The notes under the pieces are model-generated. The model saw only the letters and a program-made list of their open reading frames with translations. It searched no databases and was not told where the DNA came from. The position numbers and the translations under genes were made by a program. This document shows, in pieces, positions 15,831 to 57,129 of a DNA stretch of 64,000 nt; position 1 is the first letter of the stretch, and the number at the start of each line of letters is the position of its first letter. The stretch lies in the NCBI RefSeq assembly GCF_055900595.2, contig NZ_CM148325.1; one strand, given 5' to 3'.

Positions 15831-15909
15831 CCGGAAAGCGGTTCACAGATCTCGCTTCGAACCAGGCAGGCCTATTGACGCTGTTGTTTTTTCAACCTAA
15901 AGTAAAGGA

Positions 15910-16058
15910 ACAAGGGTAAGGGAGGATTTCTCCCCCCTCTGAATTGGTTGTTAATAAGCCTGGAAACTTACTAGTAACAACACAATCAGTATGATGACGA
16001 ACTTCATCATAACCCTTTCCTTCTATAAGGCCCCTTCTTCGGGAGGGGCTTTCCCGTT
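15910..16058 (+). ncRNA. sibD: Sib-family antisense antitoxin RNA (predicted), fully overlapping ibs copy 1
   Basis: Plus-strand promoter TTGACG(15875-80)-17nt-TAAAGT(15898-903); hairpin gcccct-tcttcggg-aggggc at 16029-16049 followed by T-rich tract. Ends approximate. Confidence 0.5.
15951..16010 (-). CDS. ibsD: Ibs-family type I toxin, 19 aa (MMKFVIILIVLLLVSFQAY)
   Basis: Minus-strand ATGATG at 16010, stop at 15951-15953; hydrophobic peptide matching the Ibs toxin pattern; symbol by position (ibsD/ibsE assignment uncertain). Confidence 0.7.
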   Translation of the reverse strand: MMKFVIILIVLLLVSFQAY

Positions 16059-16286
16059 TCAGCCCCTTGCTGACTCCCCGATTGTTGATGAGCGCCAGAC
16101 CCCGCGCAATGCTTTCCCAGAGGCAGTTTTGCCTTCCCCGAGCAGTCACGCAAAACGCTGCAACAGCCTGATCATTTGCAGTTTTTTGTGGAACACAGAT
16201 ATAAAAAATCCCCGGTTTTTTGGGCCAGGGATATGTGTTAATGAAACCTTCTTGACGCTGATTTTTTTTCAACCTAAAGTAAAGGA

Positions 16287-16434
16287 ACAAGGGTAAGGGA
16301 GGATTTCTCCCCCCTCTGAATGGCCGTTAATAAGCGTGGAAACTTATCAGTAACAGCACAATCAGTATGATGACGAACTTCATCATAACCCTTTCCTTAT
16401 GTAAGGCCCCTTCCTCGGGAGGGGCTTTCCCGTT
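16287..16434 (+). ncRNA. sibE: Sib-family antisense antitoxin RNA (predicted), copy 2
   Basis: Promoter TTGACG(16252-57)-17nt-TAAAGT(16275-80); terminator hairpin 16405-16425 + T tract. Ends approximate. Confidence 0.5.
16327..16386 (-). CDS. ibsE: Ibs-family type I toxin, 19 aa (MMKFVIILIVLLLISFHAY)
   Basis: Second repeat copy; minus-strand ATGATG at 16386, stop 16327-16329. Confidence 0.7.
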   Translation of the reverse strand: MMKFVIILIVLLLISFHAY

Positions 16435-16624: not shown

Positions 16625-18301
16625 TTATTCTATGTTTTCTGCGACGGGAGTTGTTGAGGTTAAGGGTGAAGTCAATGCCGCCAGTGAGCCGCCTGAAACG
16701 CCAATTTCATTGAGCAAGGAGTCAATCAGCGGTGCCTGTGTGCGGTAAGAAAGGGCGGCAGACAATGCCTGTTCTGCCAGGTTTCCGCCACTAACGCTGC
16801 CTGATGCCGCATCCCCCGCAGCACCACCTCGGTTTAATCCATCGACCTGAATAATCTTGATGCCGTCAATGGACTTCATCGGCTCAACGGATTTCTCTAT
16901 TACTGCAGGTAACGACTGTAATAGCGCCAGTTTGAATTTAAGGCTGGTTTGCTCGTCAGAAAGTACGTTGATAGCGTCGTTCAGCGCACGTTGCGCTTCT
17001 GCTTCCGCCAGGCCTTTTTTGCGTGTTGCTTCGGCTAACTCAACGATCGCCGCCGCCTGCATCTCTGCGGCTTCTTTCTCTGCGGCTTCTTTCTCTGCTT
17101 TCGCCCGCACGGTCAGTTCAACCGCTTTGGTTTCTGCATCCTGCGCGGCAGCGATTAGGGCAACTTGTTTAGCACGATCGGCTTCTGCGGTCTGGCGAGT
17201 GGTTTCTACGTTTTGCTGGGCGCTTACCGCTTCTGCAAGTGCAAGGTTGGCACGCGCTTCCGCTTGTGACTGCTGTTCCGATTTGGCGGCAATAGCGATC
17301 GATTTCGTCTGGTTGGCGATTTCGGTGACCTGCTGCTGTTCGATCTCTTTAATGCGAACTTCACGTTCAGCTTCAACTTTTCTGGAACGGACGACCTGTT
17401 CGCGGTCGATTTCCGTTTCCTGAATCTGTCGTTCAGCCAGAATTCGCGTCTGCTCTGCTTCCCGACGACGCTCGGCCTCAAAAGCCGCAATTTTCGCATT
17501 CTGCTCAGCGGTACGGGTTTTAACCTGCTGCTCCTGCTCAAGCGTCATAAACGCTTCTTGCTGTTCAATCTCCAGCTTCCGCGAAAGCGCATCACGGTTT
17601 TTCTCACGCACCGCAACTTCTACATCCTGTTCAACTTCGTTACGTTCGCGACGACGGCGCTCCGTCTCCTGCGTCAGCTTGGTTAAACCTTCGGCGTCAA
17701 AGGCGTTGTTAGGATTGAAATGTTCCTTCGACGTCTGGTTAAAGTTGGTAAGTGAAACGCTTTCCAGTTCCAGGCCGTTTTTCGACAGATCTTCAGCAAC
17801 GGTATTTTGTACGCCCTGCACGAAGTTCTCGCGGGTATCCTGTAACTCATGCATGGTCATTTGTGCAGCTGTTGCACGGAGGGCATCGACAAATTTATCT
17901 TCAACCAACATACGTAAGTCTTCAGGCGACAGGGTGCGTTGCCCCAGCGTCTGGGCGGCGGTGGCAATACCTTCCACTGACGGTTTTACCCGCACAAAGA
18001 AAGCGACAACGACATCGACGCGCATACGATCTTTCGTAATCAGGCTATCAATGGTTGAGCGGCTGACTTCCAGCTTCAGAGTATTCATATTGATGGGGAT
18101 TATTTCATGAAAGATCGGCATCACGATTGCGCCACCGCTCATTACCACTTTTTGCCCACCTAAACCAGTACGAACAAAAGCTTGCTCTGCCGAAGCGCGA
18201 CGATAGAGCCTGGCGAAAATAATTCCAATAATAAACAGAATGCATACGGCAATAATTGCGGTAAACATCCAGGAGGGCACAGAATTAACAATATCATCCA
18301 T
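16625..18301 (-). CDS. yqiK: SPFH/band-7 (flotillin-like) membrane protein YqiK
   Basis: 558-aa ORF; N-terminal TM, SPFH domain, long Ala/Glu/Gln-rich coiled-coil. Confidence 0.85.
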   Translation of the reverse strand: MDDIVNSVPSWMFTAIIAVCILFIIGIIFARLYRRASAEQAFVRTGLGGQKVVMSGGAIVMPIFHEIIPINMNTLKLEVSRSTIDSLITKDRMRVDVVVAFFVRVKPSVEGIATAAQTLGQRTLSPEDLRMLVEDKFVDALRATAAQMTMHELQDTRENFVQGVQNTVAEDLSKNGLELESVSLTNFNQTSKEHFNPNNAFDAEGLTKLTQETERRRRERNEVEQDVEVAVREKNRDALSRKLEIEQQEAFMTLEQEQQVKTRTAEQNAKIAAFEAERRREAEQTRILAERQIQETEIDREQVVRSRKVEAEREVRIKEIEQQQVTEIANQTKSIAIAAKSEQQSQAEARANLALAEAVSAQQNVETTRQTAEADRAKQVALIAAAQDAETKAVELTVRAKAEKEAAEKEAAEMQAAAIVELAEATRKKGLAEAEAQRALNDAINVLSDEQTSLKFKLALLQSLPAVIEKSVEPMKSIDGIKIIQVDGLNRGGAAGDAASGSVSGGNLAEQALSAALSYRTQAPLIDSLLNEIGVSGGSLAALTSPLTSTTPVAENIE

Positions 18302-18327
18302 TATTAAATTTCCTTTTGATTAATAAA

Positions 18328-18957
18328 TTACAGTATTTGGGGCCAGGGTTTTTTTTTCGCCAAATATCGCGTTGCAGAAAGTCGGCAAATAATTAATACT
18401 TTGTCTCCTTTAGTGAAAGTTTTTTCTTCTTCAGGTTCCAGTAGTAAATAATGTATTTGGCCAAATTGATCGGTGAGTTTTCCTTCACAGGGGTTACCTG
18501 AAGTGGCCTGATGTCCGGTAATTAATGCCATGCAGCCAATATATTCTTCTTCTGTAATAGCTGAACTATGGTCGCGTGGAATCCAGGGCGCAACTATTTT
18601 ACCGGTATAATGCACCGCAATAATCGTTAGCAGTAAACTGACAGGAACCACAAACAGATTTGTGAGTGGTGATTGCCAGACCATGATGCAGACCTGCTGT
18701 AGCAGGATGCCAATAAGGCCAAAAAAACCAGCATGTAAGCAGAGAACGACGAGAGCTGGCAATCTTCCAAAATTGAGATAATGAAGTGCCTGGCTAATAT
18801 GACCTGTGGTTATGGAATCATAATGGTCAAGATGTGCATCAAGAGCACCGGAAAGCATGTGACCGCAGATAAGTGCAAAAATTTCTAAAAGGCCGATCAA
18901 AAGTACAAAAGAAATAGCGAAAAGATAAGGGGTGTTATAGTCAGCGAATAAAATCAT
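18328..18957 (-). CDS. yqiJ: NfeD-like inner membrane protein YqiJ (partner of YqiK)
   Basis: 209-aa membrane ORF immediately upstream of yqiK in the same orientation. Confidence 0.82.
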
Positions 18958-19226
18958 ATGTCACTCCAATGTCCATTTAGTGACGCAATATTTATTTTGC
19001 GATAATTTCCTTGCTTACATTTATCTTTGTTAATAATAACACATGTTAGCGATGTTCTGAAAGAGAAAGTCTTTTAATGTTGTTTTTTTATTTTTCACTA
19101 AAAAGTGTGATCGGGAACAATATATTTACGCACGTTATGTTTAAAGGCACTACACTGATTGGGGAATACTGAAATCAGAAAAAGCATATGGCCTTAAAAG
19201 GTATGCGATAACCGGAGGATGTGCTT

Positions 19227-19427
19227 ATGGATCATAGTCTTAATTCTTTAAATAACTTCGATTTCCTGGCGCGTAGTTTTGCCAGAATGCACGCAGAAGG
19301 TCGCCCGGTCGATATTCTGGCCGTTACTGGTAACATGGATGAAGAACATAGAACCTGGTTTTGCGCACGTTATGCCTGGTATTGCCAACAGATGATGCAA
19401 ACCAGAGAACTGGAATTAGAACATTGA
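19227..19427 (+). CDS. glgS: surface composition regulator GlgS
   Basis: 66-aa [32 protein letters not shown]... Confidence 0.85.
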
Positions 19428-19431
19428 TATT

Positions 19432-19454
19432 ACGGGCCGTCTGGCCCGTTTTTG
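19432..19454. terminator. bidirectional Rho-independent terminator between convergent glgS and ubiK
   Basis: acgggcc-gtct-ggcccgt stem-loop followed by TTTTG. Confidence 0.5.
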
Positions 19455-19461
19455 TGGTGCT

Positions 19462-19761
19462 TTATTCTGCTTTATCAACCGGCGGGATAGCTGGAGGAGA
19501 TTGAAGTTCTGCTACCGGATTATTGCGCGCTTCCAGTTCGCTGATGCGTTGTTCCAGTAACGCCAGTTTTTCACGAGTCCGTAACAGGACTTGCGTCTGA
19601 ACGTCGAATTCTTCGCGGCTTACCAGATCGAGACGCGTCAACTGCGCTTGTAGGGTTTGGCGGATTTTTTTCTCCACATCTTCCCCGAACTCCCTGATTC
19701 CTTTAGGCATTGATTCGTGAACCTGGCGAGCGATTTGCTCAATTTTTTTCGGGTCAATCAT
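19462..19761 (-). CDS. ubiK: ubiquinone biosynthesis accessory factor UbiK (YqiC)
   Basis: [35 protein letters not shown]...; coiled-coil BMFP-like; start chosen internal to the 119-aa track ORF. Confidence 0.8.
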
Positions 19762-19883
19762 TGTAGTTTCCCTGTACTGATAGGTGTTGAGTGCCATTGT
19801 AGTGCGATAAGGGTAAGTCATAAACCAGAATTATGTGAAGCTATGCGTTGCTGCCGCTAATCATTAGCGTTATAGTGAATCCG

Positions 19884-20134
19884 CTTATTCTCAGGGCGGG
19901 GCGAAATTCCCCACCGGCGGTAAATCAACTCAGTTGAAAGCCCGCGAGCGCTTTGGGTGCGAACTCAAAGGACAGCAGATCCGGTGTAATTCCGGGGCCG
20001 ACGGTTAGAGTCCGGATGGGAGAGAGTAACGATTCTGTCGGGCATGGACCCGCTCACGTTATTTTGGCTATATGCCGCCACTCCTAAGACTGCCCTGATT
20101 CTGGTAACCATAATTTTAGTGAGGTTTTTTTACC
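19884..20134 (+). promoter_or_regulatory. FMN riboswitch (RFN element) in ribB leader (sroG region)
   Basis: Conserved RFN aptamer motifs (ttctcagggcggggcgaaattcccc...ggacagcagatccggtgtaattccggggccgacggttagagtccggatgggagag); preceded by promoter TTGCTG(19848)-17-TATAGT(19871). Confidence 0.75.
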
Positions 20135-20788
20135 ATGAATCAGACGCTACTTTCCTCTTTTGGTACGCCTTTCGAACGTGTTGAAAATGCACTGGCTGCG
20201 CTGCGTGAAGGACGCGGTGTAATGGTGCTTGATGATGAAGACCGTGAAAACGAAGGCGATATGATCTTCCCGGCAGAAACCATGACCGTTGAGCAGATGG
20301 CGCTGACCATTCGCCACGGTAGCGGTATTGTTTGCCTGTGCATTACTGAAGATCGCCGTAAACAACTCGATCTGCCAATGATGGTAGAAAATAACACCAG
20401 CGCCTATGGCACCGGTTTTACCGTGACCATTGAAGCGGCTGAAGGTGTGACTACCGGTGTTTCTGCCGCTGACCGTATTACTACCGTTCGCGCAGCGATT
20501 GCCGATGGCGCAAAACCTTCTGATCTGAATCGTCCTGGCCACGTTTTCCCACTGCGCGCGCAGGCGGGTGGTGTGCTGACGCGTGGCGGCCATACTGAAG
20601 CGACTATTGATCTGATGACGCTGGCAGGCTTTAAACCGGCTGGTGTGCTGTGTGAGCTGACTAATGACGATGGCACGATGGCGCGTGCACCAGAGTGCAT
20701 TGAGTTTGCCAATAAACACAATATGGCGCTCGTGACTATTGAAGACCTGGTGGCATACCGTCAGGCACATGAGCGTAAAGCTAGCTGA
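20135..20788 (+). CDS. ribB: 3,4-dihydroxy-2-butanone-4-phosphate synthase
   Basis: 217-aa [45 protein letters not shown]... Confidence 0.92.
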
Positions 20789-20820
20789 AAACCGCTGCTT
20801 AATTTACCGCGTTAATCAAT

Positions 20821-21528
20821 AAATATCCTCCGGCATAGCCGGAGGTTTTTCAAATGCGCCTGTAAGGCTCTGTTACCAGCCGCGCCCTAACAGGCGCATA
20901 CGATCTGACATTTGCATTCAACTTCGTTACTTACGGCCCGTAAACGGGCTGCCCGGATATGGAATCGATAACTGCTCCCCCATTTTATCCTCTTCAAGCT
21001 GGTGCTTTATGTAGTCCTGTATCTTCGCCGTGTTCTTACCCACCGTATCGACATAGTACCCTCGGCACCAGAACTCCCTGTTTCTGTATTTGAATTTCAA
21101 ATCCCCAAACTGCTCGTAAAGCATCAGACTGCTTTTCCCTTTCAGATATCCCATAAAGCCGGATACGCTCATTTTGGGTGGGATTTCCACAAGCATATGG
21201 ATATGATCTGCGCAGCACTCTGCTTCCAGAATCCGTACGCTTTTCCACTCACACAGCTTTCTCAAAATACTGCCTATCGCCCTACGCTTCTCTCCGTAAA
21301 ACGCCAGTCTTCGGTATTTCGGCGCAAAAACTATGTGATATTTACAGTTCCAGCGGGTGTGCGCTAAGCTCTTTTCGTCCCCCATTGGGACCCCCTTTTG
21401 ATTTCTTGTTTGACACTTGCAGTTGCCAGACCGCAAGGTGTTTTAACAAATCAAAAGGGGTTTTAATAACTGGCTCAAAGCTGAAAGCTTTCCGGAACCC
21501 CCAGCCTAGCTGGGGGTTTTCTGTGCAC
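20821..21528 (-). mobile_element. IS200 insertion sequence (~708 bp); ends inferred (+/-20 bp)
   Basis: 152-aa IS200 TnpA; left end (high coordinate) inferred from hairpins at 21495-21517 and 21391-21460, which match the recalled IS200 leader positions (nt 12-34 and 69-138). Confidence 0.65.
20927..21385 (-). CDS. tnpA: IS200 transposase TnpA (Y1/HUH)
   Basis: MGDEKSLAHTRWNCKYHIVFAPKYRR...HIHMLVEIPP...; 152 aa from second in-frame ATG. Confidence 0.9.
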   Translation of the reverse strand: MGDEKSLAHTRWNCKYHIVFAPKYRRLAFYGEKRRAIGSILRKLCEWKSVRILEAECCADHIHMLVEIPPKMSVSGFMGYLKGKSSLMLYEQFGDLKFKYRNREFWCRGYYVDTVGKNTAKIQDYIKHQLEEDKMGEQLSIPYPGSPFTGRK

Positions 21529-21530
21529 AA

Positions 21531-21565
21531 GAAACCGAAGCTATTACTGGCTTCGGTTTTTATTT
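21531..21565 (+). terminator. Rho-independent terminator, probably the native ribB terminator displaced by IS200
   Basis: gaaaccgaagc-tattactg-gcttcggttt followed by TTTATTTT, immediately outside the inferred IS200 left end. Confidence 0.5.
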
Positions 21566-21761
21566 TGCTCTTGTTATGCAAGATGTTAATTCCTCTTCTC
21601 TTTCTATGAGAAAATTTCATTAATATCAGGCATTCTTTTCCATTATGATCAAAATCATATAATTGTTCCGTTATTATGCGACCATATGAATATATCCGAA
21701 AAAGGATATGTGAATTTTATGCGCTAAATGTTTAGTATTGTTAAATATTAAGGGTAAAAGG

Positions 21762-21932
21762 ATGTTTATCGCCTGGTACTGGATTGTATTGATTGCTCTG
21801 GTTGTGGTGGGTTATTTACTGCATTTGAAACGTTATTGTCGGGCGTTTCGTCAGGACAGAGACGCACTGCTTGAAGCGCGGAATAAATACTTAAACAGTA
21901 CGAGAGAAGAGACAGCCGAGAAGGTAGAATAG
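21762..21932 (+). CDS. small (56 aa) single-TM membrane protein, unnamed
   Basis: RBS aagggtaaaagg-ATG; N-terminal hydrophobic helix then charged tail; followed by a 12-bp-stem hairpin (21950-21980). Confidence 0.4.
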   Translation: MFIAWYWIVLIALVVVGYLLHLKRYCRAFRQDRDALLEARNKYLNSTREETAEKVE

Positions 21933-21949
21933 GGCTTTAGTGAAGCTGG

Positions 21950-21980
21950 CAGAAGTTGTCCATGCGCTGGACAACTTCTG
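21950..21980. terminator. bidirectional terminator hairpin between small ORF and zupT
   Basis: cagaagttgtcc-atgcgct-ggacaacttctg perfect 12-bp stem, T-rich 3' flank. Confidence 0.55.
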
Positions 21981-21989
21981 ATGTTGCTT

Positions 21990-22763
21990 TTAACCAATTC
22001 CCGCCGTTTGTAGTAGCACTAAACTGAATCCCATCACTGACATTCCACATAGCACGCCATAGCTGGGGTTATTATTGGGGTCAATCTCTTTAGCTAGCGG
22101 CATTAATTCATCAACCGAGAGCGCCACCATAATTCCTGCAACCGCCGCCATGATTGCCGCCATGACCACCGGAGAAATCATGCTACCGAGGATTAACCAC
22201 GCCAGAACACCACCAAGAATTTCTGCCAGCCCAGAAATGCCCGCCCACAAAATTGCGGTGCGTTTTGACCCCGTTGCCGCGTAAACCGGCCCCGCAACTG
22301 CCAGACCTTCAGGAATATTATGCAATGCAACAGCCAGCGCGATGCCAAAGCCCAGCTCCAGGTTACTGCTCGCCGTGACAAAGGTGGCAATGCCTTCCGG
22401 GAAGTTATGCAGACTGATGCCGAGAGTGAGCAGAATGGCTGTGCGCTTGATCGATTTTGGCAACGGCTGCACCGATTTTTGCATTAAATCCTGCGGATGC
22501 GCATGTGGCAACATGCGGTCCAGACCAAAATAGCCAAGCAGACCGAAGATAAACATTCCATAACCCAGCACAGGCGACATTCCTTCGGCGGCTAATGCGG
22601 CAGGAAGCATTTCCATTAATGAGATGAGCAACATAATCCCCGCCGCAAATCCTAGCGAAAACGCCAGTAAGCGGTTCGAGGGTTTTTGTCCGAGAACGCC
22701 GAGAAACGCGCCAATAAACGTGGCTGCCCCCGCCAGTATGGTCAGAATGAGAGGTACTGACAT
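21990..22763 (-). CDS. zupT: ZIP-family zinc transporter ZupT
   Basis: 257-aa membrane ORF from [20 protein letters not shown]... Confidence 0.88.
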
Positions 22764-22878
22764 CGACAACTCCTTATAAATCTTTACCTTCAGGCAGATC
22801 GTCAAAATAACTGATGATCATCATCATTGTTATCCGGGTTCTTACTCCGCCGAACAAGCGTATTGTGAGGATATCAAA

Positions 22879-23694
22879 ATGACACCTTTAGTTAAGGATA
22901 TCATCATGTCTTCAACACGTATGCCAGCATTGTTTTTAGGTCACGGTAGTCCGATGAACGTGCTGGAAGATAATTTGTATACCCGCAGCTGGCAGAAGTT
23001 GGGGATGACATTGCCACGCCCGCAAGCGATTGTTGTGGTTTCGGCTCACTGGTTTACCCGTGGAACTGGAGTGACCGCGATGGAGACGCCGCCCACGATT
23101 CATGATTTTGGCGGTTTTCCGCAGGCGCTGTACGACACCCATTATCCTGCTCCGGGTTCGCCTGCGCTGGCACAGCGTCTGGTTGAGCTGTTAGCGCCGG
23201 TCCCTGTGACGCTGGATAAAGAAGCCTGGGGCTTTGACCACGGTTCCTGGGGCGTGCTGATTAAGATGTATCCTGACGCCGATATCCCGATGGTGCAGTT
23301 GAGTATCGACAGTACCAAACCTGCCGCCTGGCACTTTGAGATGGGGCGTAAACTGGCGGCTCTGCGAGACGAAGGAATAATGTTGGTCGCCAGCGGTAAC
23401 GTGGTGCATAACCTGCGTACGGTGAAGTGGCACGGTGATAGTTCACCGTATCCTTGGGCGATGTCGTTTAATGAGTATGTGAAAGCGAATCTGACGTGGC
23501 AAGGACCGGTAGAACAGCATCCTCTGGTGAATTATCTCGACCATGAAGGTGGCGCGTTATCGAACCCAACGCCAGAGCACTATCTGCCGTTGTTGTATGT
23601 CTTAGGTGCGTGGGATGGGCAGGAGCCAATTACCATTCCGGTCGATGGTATAGAAATGGGCAGTTTAAGTATGTTGTCGGTGCAGATAGGCTAA
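22879..23694 (+). CDS. ygiD: 4,5-DOPA dioxygenase extradiol-like protein YgiD
   Basis: ORF ...MPALFLGHGSPMNVLED...; start could be the internal ATG at 22909. Confidence 0.8.
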   Translation: MTPLVKDIIMSSTRMPALFLGHGSPMNVLEDNLYTRSWQKLGMTLPRPQAIVVVSAHWFTRGTGVTAMETPPTIHDFGGFPQALYDTHYPAPGSPALAQRLVELLAPVPVTLDKEAWGFDHGSWGVLIKMYPDADIPMVQLSIDSTKPAAWHFEMGRKLAALRDEGIMLVASGNVVHNLRTVKWHGDSSPYPWAMSFNEYVKANLTWQGPVEQHPLVNYLDHEGGALSNPTPEHYLPLLYVLGAWDGQEPITIPVDGIEMGSLSMLSVQIG

Positions 23695-46492: not shown

Positions 46493-46596
46493 ACGTTCCT
46501 CCTTTATATGAACTCACCGGAGCAGGCTCCGGTGAGGTGTTGTGAACTTAAGTCTGGACGAAATGCCCGAAAACGAAAGTTTGAGGCGTAAAAAGC

Positions 46597-55813: not shown

Positions 55814-57022
55814 TCATAATTTCCCCAAAACGTAACCATGTGTGAATAGATTTTGAGTAAGCAGGGTTGCAGCCACGAGTGAGTCTTCCCTTGTTATTGT
55901 GTAGCCAGAATGCCGCAAAACTTCCATGCCTAAGCGAACTGTTGAGAGTACGTTTCGATTTCTGACTGTGTTAGCCTGGAAGTGCTTGTCCCAACCTTGT
56001 TTCTGAGCATGAACGCCCGCAAGCCAACATGTTAGTTGAAGCATCAGGGCGATTAGCAGCATGATATCAAAACGCTCTGAGCTGCTCGTTCGGCTATGGC
56101 GTAGGCCTAGTCCGTAGGCAGGACTTTTCAAGTCTCGGAAGGTTTCTTCAATCTGCATTCGCTTCGAATAGATATTAACAAGTTGTTTGGGTGTTCGAAT
56201 TTCAACAGGTAAGTTAGTTGCTAGAATCCATGGCTCCTTTGCCGACGCTGAGTAGATTTTAGGTGACGGGTGGTGACAATGAGTCCGTGTCGAGCGCTGA
56301 TTTTTTCGGCCTTTAGAGCGAGATTTATACAATAGAATTTGGCATGAGATTGGATTGCTTTTAGTCAGCCTCTTATAGCCTAAAGTCTTTGAGTGACTAG
56401 ATGACATATCATGTAAGTTGCTGATAGGTTTCCAGTTTTCCGCTCCTAGGTCTGCATATTGTACTTTTCCTCTTACTCGACTTAACCAGTACCAACCCAG
56501 CTTCTCAACGGATTTATACCATGGCACTTTAAAGCCAGCATCACTGACAATGAGCGGTGTGGTGTTACTCGGTAGAATGCTCGCAAGGTCGGCTAGAAAT
56601 TGGTCATGAGCTTTCTTTGAACATTGCTCTGAAAGCGGGAACGCTTTCTCATAAAGAGTAACAGAACGACCGTGTAGTGCGACTGAAGCTCGCAATACCA
56701 TAAGCCGTTTTTGCTCACGGATATCAGACCAGTCAACAAGTACAATGGGCATCGTATTGCCCGAACAGATAAAGCTAGCATGCCAACGGTATACAGCGAG
56801 TCGCTCTTTGTGGAGGTGACGATTACCTAACAATCGGTCGATTCGTTTGATGTTATGTTTTGTTCTCGCTTTGGTTGGCAGGTTACGGCCAAGTTCGGTA
56901 AGAGTGAGAGTTTTACAGTCAAGTAAGGCGTGGCAAGCCAACGTTAAGCTGTTGAGTCGTTTTAAGTGTAATTCGGGGCAGAATTGGTAAAGAGAGTCGT
57001 GTAAAATATCGAGTTCGCACAT
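55814..57022 (-). CDS. tnp: IS10 transposase (IS4 family, DDE)
   Basis: 402-aa ORF MCELDILHDSLYQFCPELHLKRLNSLTLACHALLDCKTLTLTELGRNLPTKARTKHNIKRIDRLLGN... Confidence 0.95.
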   Translation of the reverse strand: MCELDILHDSLYQFCPELHLKRLNSLTLACHALLDCKTLTLTELGRNLPTKARTKHNIKRIDRLLGNRHLHKERLAVYRWHASFICSGNTMPIVLVDWSDIREQKRLMVLRASVALHGRSVTLYEKAFPLSEQCSKKAHDQFLADLASILPSNTTPLIVSDAGFKVPWYKSVEKLGWYWLSRVRGKVQYADLGAENWKPISNLHDMSSSHSKTLGYKRLTKSNPISCQILLYKSRSKGRKNQRSTRTHCHHPSPKIYSASAKEPWILATNLPVEIRTPKQLVNIYSKRMQIEETFRDLKSPAYGLGLRHSRTSSSERFDIMLLIALMLQLTCWLAGVHAQKQGWDKHFQANTVRNRNVLSTVRLGMEVLRHSGYTITREDSLVAATLLTQNLFTHGYVLGKL

Positions 57023-57083
57023 TTTGTTGTCTGATTATTGATTTTTGGCGAAACCATTTGATCATATGACAAGATGTGTATCC
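57015..57083 (+). ncRNA. IS10 RNA-OUT antisense RNA (predicted from IS10 coordinates)
   Basis: Corresponds to IS10 bp 115-47; sequence tcgcacattttgttgtctgattattgatttttggcgaaaccatttgatcatatgacaagatgtgtatcc is antisense to the transposase start; GATC (dam) site in the pIN -10 region. Confidence 0.5.
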
Positions 57084-57129
57084 ACCTTAACTTAATGATT
57101 TTTACCAAAATCATTAGGGGATTCATCAG

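Follow-up and report, generated by a model that had tools for sequence, protein, structure and literature searches.

The known FMN riboswitch of the Escherichia coli ribB leader and its start-codon-sequestering expression platform

The window, i.e. the whole 64-kb stretch of DNA that was analyzed, derives from Escherichia coli and contains at 20135-20788 on the plus strand the gene ribB, which encodes 3,4-dihydroxy-2-butanone-4-phosphate synthase (217 aa). This assignment had already been made in an earlier reading based on the letters alone (the sequence-only reading). It is confirmed by the equivalog-domain model TIGR00506, which RibB matches with 287.7 bits at a cutoff of 177.45, and by the RefSeq annotation. 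The neighbor on the upstream side is ubiK (19462-19761). The gene glgS (19227-19427) adjoins ubiK in the window and likewise in strain Z0117EC0005, whereas in K-12 MG1655 (locus L002, 3341-5501) ygiL, an IS2-disrupted yqiG and further fimbrial genes are found next to ubiK in its place. The ygiL-yqiG fimbrial genes and the IS2 found beyond ubiK in K-12 are missing at this place in the window strain.

The sequence-only reading had placed an FMN riboswitch in front of ribB, at 19884-20134, an interval that ends one base before the ATG of the gene (20135). The covariance-model scan proposed in that same reading as a check gave a match to the Rfam model RF00050 at 19883-20031 (+), covering model positions 1-138 of 138 and not truncated, with a cmscan score of 120.9 bits, which is nearly twice the gathering score of 66.2. 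The E-value of the match was 1e-28 if positions 17000-23000 were scanned against all Rfam models and 1.1e-27 for the scan of the complete window, in which the FMN riboswitch was matched only once, at this same site. At the most conserved (upper-case) positions of the RF00050 consensus the window is identical in 65 of 66 cases. The single mismatch, a change from U to C at alignment position 20, is located in the loop of P2. The riboswitch is thereby confirmed, at a significance that chance could not produce.

The matched region represents the FMN aptamer (RFN element) with helices P1 to P6 and bears the name sroG. In the Rfam structure the closing helix P1 is formed by the 5' strand UUAUUCUC (nt 3-10 in the published leader numbering, 19885-19892) and the 3' strand GAGAGUAA (nt 140-147, 20022-20029), both on the plus strand, with 92% of cells paired across 40 species. 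From the 3' end of the aptamer to the ATG of ribB, which lies on the same (+) strand, the distance is 103 nt. The annotation of the best-matching genome by PGAP contains an "FMN riboswitch" at the equivalent of 19883-20031. Score, core nucleotides, P1-P6 architecture and leader position all assign the RNA to RF00050, and we found no evidence against its identity as an FMN riboswitch; the caveats given below concern the mechanism. It is practically certain that we are dealing with the FMN riboswitch of E. coli ribB, which acts in cis as an OFF switch within the 252-nt leader of this gene and whose 5' part has been catalogued as sroG.

The segment from 19740 to 20160 (421 bases) is 100% identical to K-12 MG1655. 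It includes the promoter, the aptamer, the expression platform and the first ribB codons, and both the downstream gene and the upstream neighbor ubiK are the same in K-12. The element itself thus shows no difference to the K-12 riboswitch (sroG), only its surroundings do. Its description as a known element was correct in two respects, as RefSeq/PGAP annotates an FMN riboswitch at the equivalent coordinates and as the sequence is the same as that of the K-12 riboswitch studied in PMC11571811. Because of the complete identity of the leader the published experiments on K-12 ribB apply directly to the DNA of the window. Of 5,426 complete E. coli genomes, 5,425 contain a match to a 1.2-kb query that surrounds the element, with ubiK, the riboswitch and ribB as the annotated features beneath the match. 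In 5,390 of these 5,425 genomes the 301-base segment from the promoter to the start codon shows an identity of 99% or more.

The sequence-only reading had further claimed a promoter belonging to the riboswitch. A -35 element TTGCTG (19848-19853, +) and a -10 element TATAGT (19871-19876, +) are separated by a spacer of 17 nt; the -10 element is preceded by a conserved GCG(T/C) and ends 6 nt before the first base of the RNA. We compared 29 Enterobacterales leaders that were anchored on the start of the aptamer. TTGC and GCG(T/C)TATAGT occur in them at fixed distances while the flanks diverge, TTGC being kept at 80% or more and TATAGT in about 27 of the 29 species. A scan of positions 19400-21000 with a generic sigma-70 consensus called no promoter, because this promoter matches only 8 of the 12 consensus positions (3 of 6 in the -35 element). 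The miss is not taken as absence, as the conservation together with the published transcription start settles the matter: the start of sroG/ribB was mapped experimentally in K-12 (PMC2760140). In agreement with this, a dCas9 guide placed right at the beginning of sroG was strongly depleted and caused a strong fitness defect, which is explained by blocked transcription of the essential gene ribB (PMC6242692). The claim of an own promoter therefore holds, with a mapped start and a conserved footprint whose spacing to the first base of the RNA is as expected, the promoter being located upstream of the interval for which it had been claimed.

Transcription starts at 19883 (+) from this dedicated promoter of the sigma-70 type. 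Position 19883 is +1 of the published ribB leader numbering and the first base of the Rfam match. Eschbach et al. 2024 used a transcript of 282 nt that ends after ribB codon 10 (PMC11571811), and it follows that the AUG begins at nt 253 and that +1 corresponds to 19883, the window coordinate being 19882 plus the nt number. With this assignment C175, G176, U181, C148 and G149 all match the published base identities.

To compare the leader between species, a DNA-pattern scan with the exact 23-nt P6/J6-1 segment CCGACGGTNNNAGTCCGGATGGGAGA was performed on one genome per species, which led to at least 120 loci from many phyla. The exact segment occurs in genomes of Chloroflexota, Actinomycetota, Bacillota, Thermus, Zixibacteria and others. 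In 39 of the 120 listed loci (L003-L122), which come from other species, a ribB start follows 98-225 nt downstream; the remaining listed loci presumably precede other riboflavin genes. These 39 loci and the window form an alignment of 40 ribB leaders (alignment A3), in which P6/J6-1 is invariant by construction, as the exact sampling pattern enforces it. Across the 40 species the helices of the aptamer are 92-100% paired, with the exception of one non-canonical pair in P4 that belongs to the consensus. P5 is paired to 100% in A3 and shows compensatory changes, from CG to UA in 3 species and from GC to AU in 8 species.

The expression platform follows the aptamer. Its dominant feature is a stem of 13 base pairs between CUGAUUCUGGUAA (nt 213-225, 20095-20107, +) and UUACCAUGAAUCAG (nt 248-261, 20130-20143, +), the latter strand containing the start codon and ribB codons 2-3. 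The 3' strand reads UUACCA-U-GAAUCAG in the pairing, the U of the AUG being bulged out. The stem is 98.1% paired in the 40 species. The Shine-Dalgarno sequence GAGG (nt 239-242, 20121-20124, +), 10 nt upstream of the AUG, is located in an apical hairpin enclosed by this stem, and the hairpin itself is weak (nt 230-235 with nt 239-244) and 70-80% paired across species. On the level of the DNA the two strands appear as conserved blocks, GCCCTG(A/G)TTCTGGTAA upstream of the Shine-Dalgarno sequence and TTACCATGAATCAG across the start codon. The blocks are complementary to each other and essentially invariant across Enterobacterales, and the cores of both are kept in Vibrio, Pleionea, Thalassospira and one Desulfobulbaceae genome.

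Codons 2-3 of ribB (AAT CAG, 20138-20143) are invariant including their synonymous sites in all 40 species, from Enterobacterales to a Desulfobulbaceae MAG, compared to codons 4-11, where synonymous sites vary freely in the same species. This invariance is the signature of a constraint on the RNA level, which acts on exactly those bases that make up the 3' strand of the sequestering stem. As codons 2-3 are frozen as part of this strand, the functional element extends to 20143, 9 nt past the earlier end at 20134. The interval of the sequence-only reading therefore contains the aptamer and most of the platform; the RNA starts one base earlier, at 19883, and the platform reaches beyond the interval into the gene.

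Two further helices compete with P1 for its strands. The first one, called anti*-P1, is a published pairing (PMC11571811) between AGAGUAACG (nt 141-149, 20023-20031, +) and CGUUAUUUU (nt 175-183, 20057-20065, +), and these two segments are complementary in the window as published. Mutations of C175 and G176 support the stem, and the pause sites 175 and 181 are located within its 3' strand (PMC11571811). In the alignment it is 87.8% paired and two of its pairs are changed on both sides. The second one emerged from minimum-free-energy folds of transcripts of increasing length. A transcript of 150 nt folds into the aptamer with P1. In transcripts of 215-247 nt, nt 9-15 (UCAGGGC, 19891-19897, +) pair with nt 210-216 (GCCCUGA, 20092-20098, +), whereby P1 is lost and the J1/2 core becomes occupied, and at 262 nt or more the sequestering stem forms. 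The 5' strand of this helix overlaps the end of P1 and the ligand-binding core J1/2. We infer that it corresponds to the anti-P1 stem of the literature, its register being derived from the folds.

The helices exclude each other by shared bases, namely nt 9-10 between P1 and anti-P1, nt 141-147 between P1 and anti*-P1, and nt 213-216 between anti-P1 and the sequestering stem. The platform thus holds a helix that sequesters the start codon and that is mutually exclusive with the anti-P1 helix. The anti-P1 pairing is found in 100% of cells across the 40 species, and GCCCUG in its 3' strand is invariant in 40 of 40. Position nt 216 (20098 in the window, column 496 of A3) is A in 33 and G in 7 of the 40 species. 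Its partner is a U in anti-P1 as well as in the sequestering stem, and the change between A and G is tolerated in each of them by means of a G-U pair. For the OFF structure as a whole (the Rfam aptamer, the sequestering stem and the Shine-Dalgarno hairpin) 93.0% of the cells in A3 are paired, compared to 39-55% in a control where the 3' partners were slid by 1-3 columns. Most platform pairs never vary, and the comparative signal is one of conservation with little true covariation. Modest independent support for the published model comes from three observations between species: the codons AAT-CAG never change, the anti-P1 pairing is kept throughout, and the A/G change at nt 216 is tolerated by both alternative helices.

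One must keep in mind the limits of the equilibrium folds. The fold of the full leader contains the sequestering stem without ligand and lacks P1, and the stability of the leader as a whole is nothing out of the ordinary (z = -0.63). Folding a single sequence at equilibrium therefore cannot tell ON from OFF. As the equilibrium fold buries the start codon even in the absence of FMN, the switch must be kinetic and act during transcription. In the register derived here, formation of anti-P1 costs the sequestering stem no more than 4 of its 13 pairs, so that this helix can account only in part for an accessible start codon in the ON state. According to the authors of PMC11571811 the platform structures are not yet fully resolved.

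The following order of events may be proposed from these helices and from the published work on the identical sequence. The first 149 nt would fold into the six-helix aptamer, and FMN binding to the nascent aptamer would lock P1 (19885-19892 with 20022-20029). FMN binding and the resulting structural change are attributed to the RNA of the window on the basis of the experiments with the identical K-12 RNA. There the 3' strand of P1 is protected by FMN against RNase H with probe 137 (Kswitch 176 nM), as is the 5' strand of the sequestering stem (nt 215-227) in nascent transcripts (Kswitch 206 nM), the Kswitch values for FMN-dependent protection of the K-12 RNA ranging from 23 to 206 nM (PMC11571811). 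With P1 locked, CUGAUUCUGGUAA (20095-20107) would be free to pair with UUACCAUGAAUCAG (20130-20143). The start codon would then be buried and the Shine-Dalgarno sequence enclosed, and ribosomes could not initiate. If FMN is scarce, anti*-P1 (20023-20031 with 20057-20065) and anti-P1 (19891-19897 with 20092-20098) would take both strands of P1. The aptamer would thereby be broken up and the base of the sequestering stem engaged in other pairs, which would permit transcription and translation of ribB and a rise in riboflavin synthesis.

Pauses of the polymerase were reported at nt 175/181 and at nt 247-249 (PMC11571811). The latter pause region (20129-20131, +; PMC5234074, PMC11571811) is reached just before the polymerase synthesizes the 3' strand of the sequestering stem, and FMN prolongs the pause in the start region (PMC5234074). 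FMN binding was 23 nM for complexes halted at nt 175 and about 7.7 µM at nt 247, a roughly 330-fold fall in affinity (PMC11571811). Because of this drop between nt 175 and nt 247, sensing is confined to a transcriptional window, which would close around the pause at nt 247-249.

In the OFF state the untranslated and restructured leader would finally allow Rho to terminate transcription before or early in ribB. In a rho mutant the transcriptional control of ribB is lost, and a Rho termination score of 3.1 was given (PMC5499598). If 223 bp of the leader are deleted, both ribB mRNA and riboflavin production are derepressed (PMC9885008). Ligand-dependent Rho termination is thus taken over from the literature on the identical sequence; the window itself adds a stretch in which C exceeds G, and which could be relevant for Rho loading. 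The C/G ratio is above 1 from about nt 144 to nt 299 with a peak of 1.67 at nt 196-273. The C-rich and G-poor segment of 30 nt at nt 191-220 (20073-20102, +; 40% C, 17% G) is a candidate for the Rho-loading (rut) region. In the literature rut sites are placed in the riboswitch and its platform (PMC5499598, PMC11571811, PMC12360218).

A purely translational switch with the same aptamer is one rival explanation. It would lower ribB mRNA indirectly, by exposing untranslated mRNA to Rho or RNases, and would not need a rut site to be unmasked. The conserved stem that buries the start codon as the dominant platform feature fits such a mechanism, and so does the fact that no intrinsic terminator was called in the leader. 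An indirect control by Rho through lost translation has moreover been documented for thiM, whereas for ribB a direct control of rut access was proposed (PMC5499598). Opposed to this, secondary sources credit Hollands 2012 with showing that Rho acts directly on the ribB leader and terminates in dependence on the ligand (PMC10085680, PMC5499598, PMC12360218), and a minimal single-molecule system free of ribosomes gives ligand-gated Rho termination in vitro (PMC10085680), which refutes the purely indirect version. We therefore consider a purely translational switch unlikely and favor the combination of start-codon sequestration with ligand-gated Rho termination.

A Bacillus-type FMN riboswitch with an intrinsic, Rho-independent terminator in the leader would be another way to stop transcription. 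The aptamer class is the same as that of Bacillus subtilis ribD, and a U-run (GGUUUUUUUACC, 20123-20134) does follow a small hairpin. This hairpin, however, consists of A-U and G-U pairs only, and a scan of the plus strand from 20031 to 20135, i.e. from the aptamer to the ATG, called no terminator-like site (a G+C-rich hairpin followed by a T-run). With no site called and a hairpin devoid of G-C pairs the intrinsic terminator was rejected as highly improbable.

The mechanical list of open reading frames also contains an ATG-initiated frame of 46 codons at 20044-20184 that begins inside the leader. It could be thought to encode a leader peptide that mediates attenuation by ribosomes in place of metabolite sensing. 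Its ATG (nt 162-164) is present in just 6 of the 40 aligned species, it is located where the leader is least conserved, and no Shine-Dalgarno sequence precedes the frame. Since the regulation is accounted for by the aptamer match and by published data on ligand binding, the probability of this explanation is close to nil, and a conserved leader peptide was rejected. The riboswitch with its sequestering stem and Rho remains the preferred interpretation.

The name sroG leads to a further question, namely whether the 5' fragment of approximately 150 nt acts in trans as a small RNA with its own targets besides its role as a cis riboswitch. Terminated riboswitch fragments that act in trans are exemplified by the SAM riboswitches of Listeria, which may serve as a precedent. 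SroG was listed as a small RNA in its own right, a transcription start was mapped for it, and its function was called unknown (PMC2760140). The literature searched, on the other hand, yielded neither a target nor a phenotype independent of ribB, the fitness effect is explained by the polar loss of essential ribB (PMC6242692), and the conservation is fully accounted for by the helices of the aptamer and the platform. A role of sroG in trans is regarded as quite improbable.

The closest relatives in mechanism differ from ribB in part of their equipment. The FMN riboswitch of B. subtilis ribD (rib operon) belongs to the same aptamer family, responds to the same ligand and likewise switches off genes of riboflavin biosynthesis, but its platform is an intrinsic terminator/antiterminator under kinetic control (PMC11571811), in contrast to the start-codon-sequestering stem and Rho of the window. 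In E. coli the TPP riboswitches of thiC, thiM and tbpA and the lysine riboswitch of lysC have aptamers and ligands different from those of ribB. Like ribB, they sense their ligands co-transcriptionally during a period that is delimited by a pause close to the start codon, and they share with it an anti-P1 helix, a block of translation and Rho-dependent termination (PMC5234074, PMC5499598). The Mg2+ leader of Salmonella mgtA is the other founding riboswitch that gates Rho-dependent termination and was studied alongside ribB (PMC5499598, PMC10085680), although it senses Mg2+, has an unrelated structure and contains a leader ORF.

The FMN riboswitch is a validated antibiotic target, addressed by roseoflavin and ribocil. 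The riboswitch of the window is real and functional but ordinary and already known, without any novelty, and since its sequence is identical to that of K-12 the window yields nothing new on riboswitch biology. Its significance is one of correct annotation, as the control of an essential gene of the riboflavin pathway is invisible to annotation based on open reading frames. The sequence-only reading had recognized this structured RNA from the raw letters to within one base.

A second difference of the window strain from K-12 concerns the region behind ribB. After the ribB stop codon (20788) and ahead of the native terminator of this gene there is a copy of an IS200-type element (711 bp, about 20820-21530), with its tnpA open reading frame at 20927-21436 (-) and an Rfam match to STnc490 at 21395-21518 (-). 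The native terminator hairpin GAAACCGAAGC...GCTTCGGTTTTT now begins at about 21531. None of the 5,426 complete E. coli genomes contains the junction between ribB and IS200, although the closest strains carry 16-18 copies of the end of the IS200 element. At 20827-20845 the terminal hairpin of IS200, CCTCCGGCATAGCCGGAGG, is followed by the T-run TTTTTC on the plus strand and is terminator-like on both strands. It is the first terminator-like structure that transcripts of ribB meet in the window strain, and it may now end them; the 3' UTR of ribB probably differs from that of K-12. Among the more speculative ideas are an altered 3'-end formation or stability of the ribB mRNA caused by IS200 and, separately, a second task of the SroG fragment in FMN titration or in base-pairing with mRNAs. 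We assign little probability to either of them, and the evidence supports neither.

The Rfam scan of the window detected other RNAs apart from the riboswitch. Two full-length Sib antitoxin RNAs (RF00113) are arranged in tandem at 15875-16025 (+; 142.9 bits) and 16252-16401 (+; 147.4 bits). They presumably represent the sibD/sibE-ibs type I toxin-antitoxin pair next to yqiK. The sRNA ES173 was matched at 46531-46594 (-) with 99 bits at a gathering score of 90. A match to RNA-OUT, the antisense RNA of IS10, at 57015-57084 (+; 97.3 bits) indicates an element of the IS10/Tn10 type near 57 kb.
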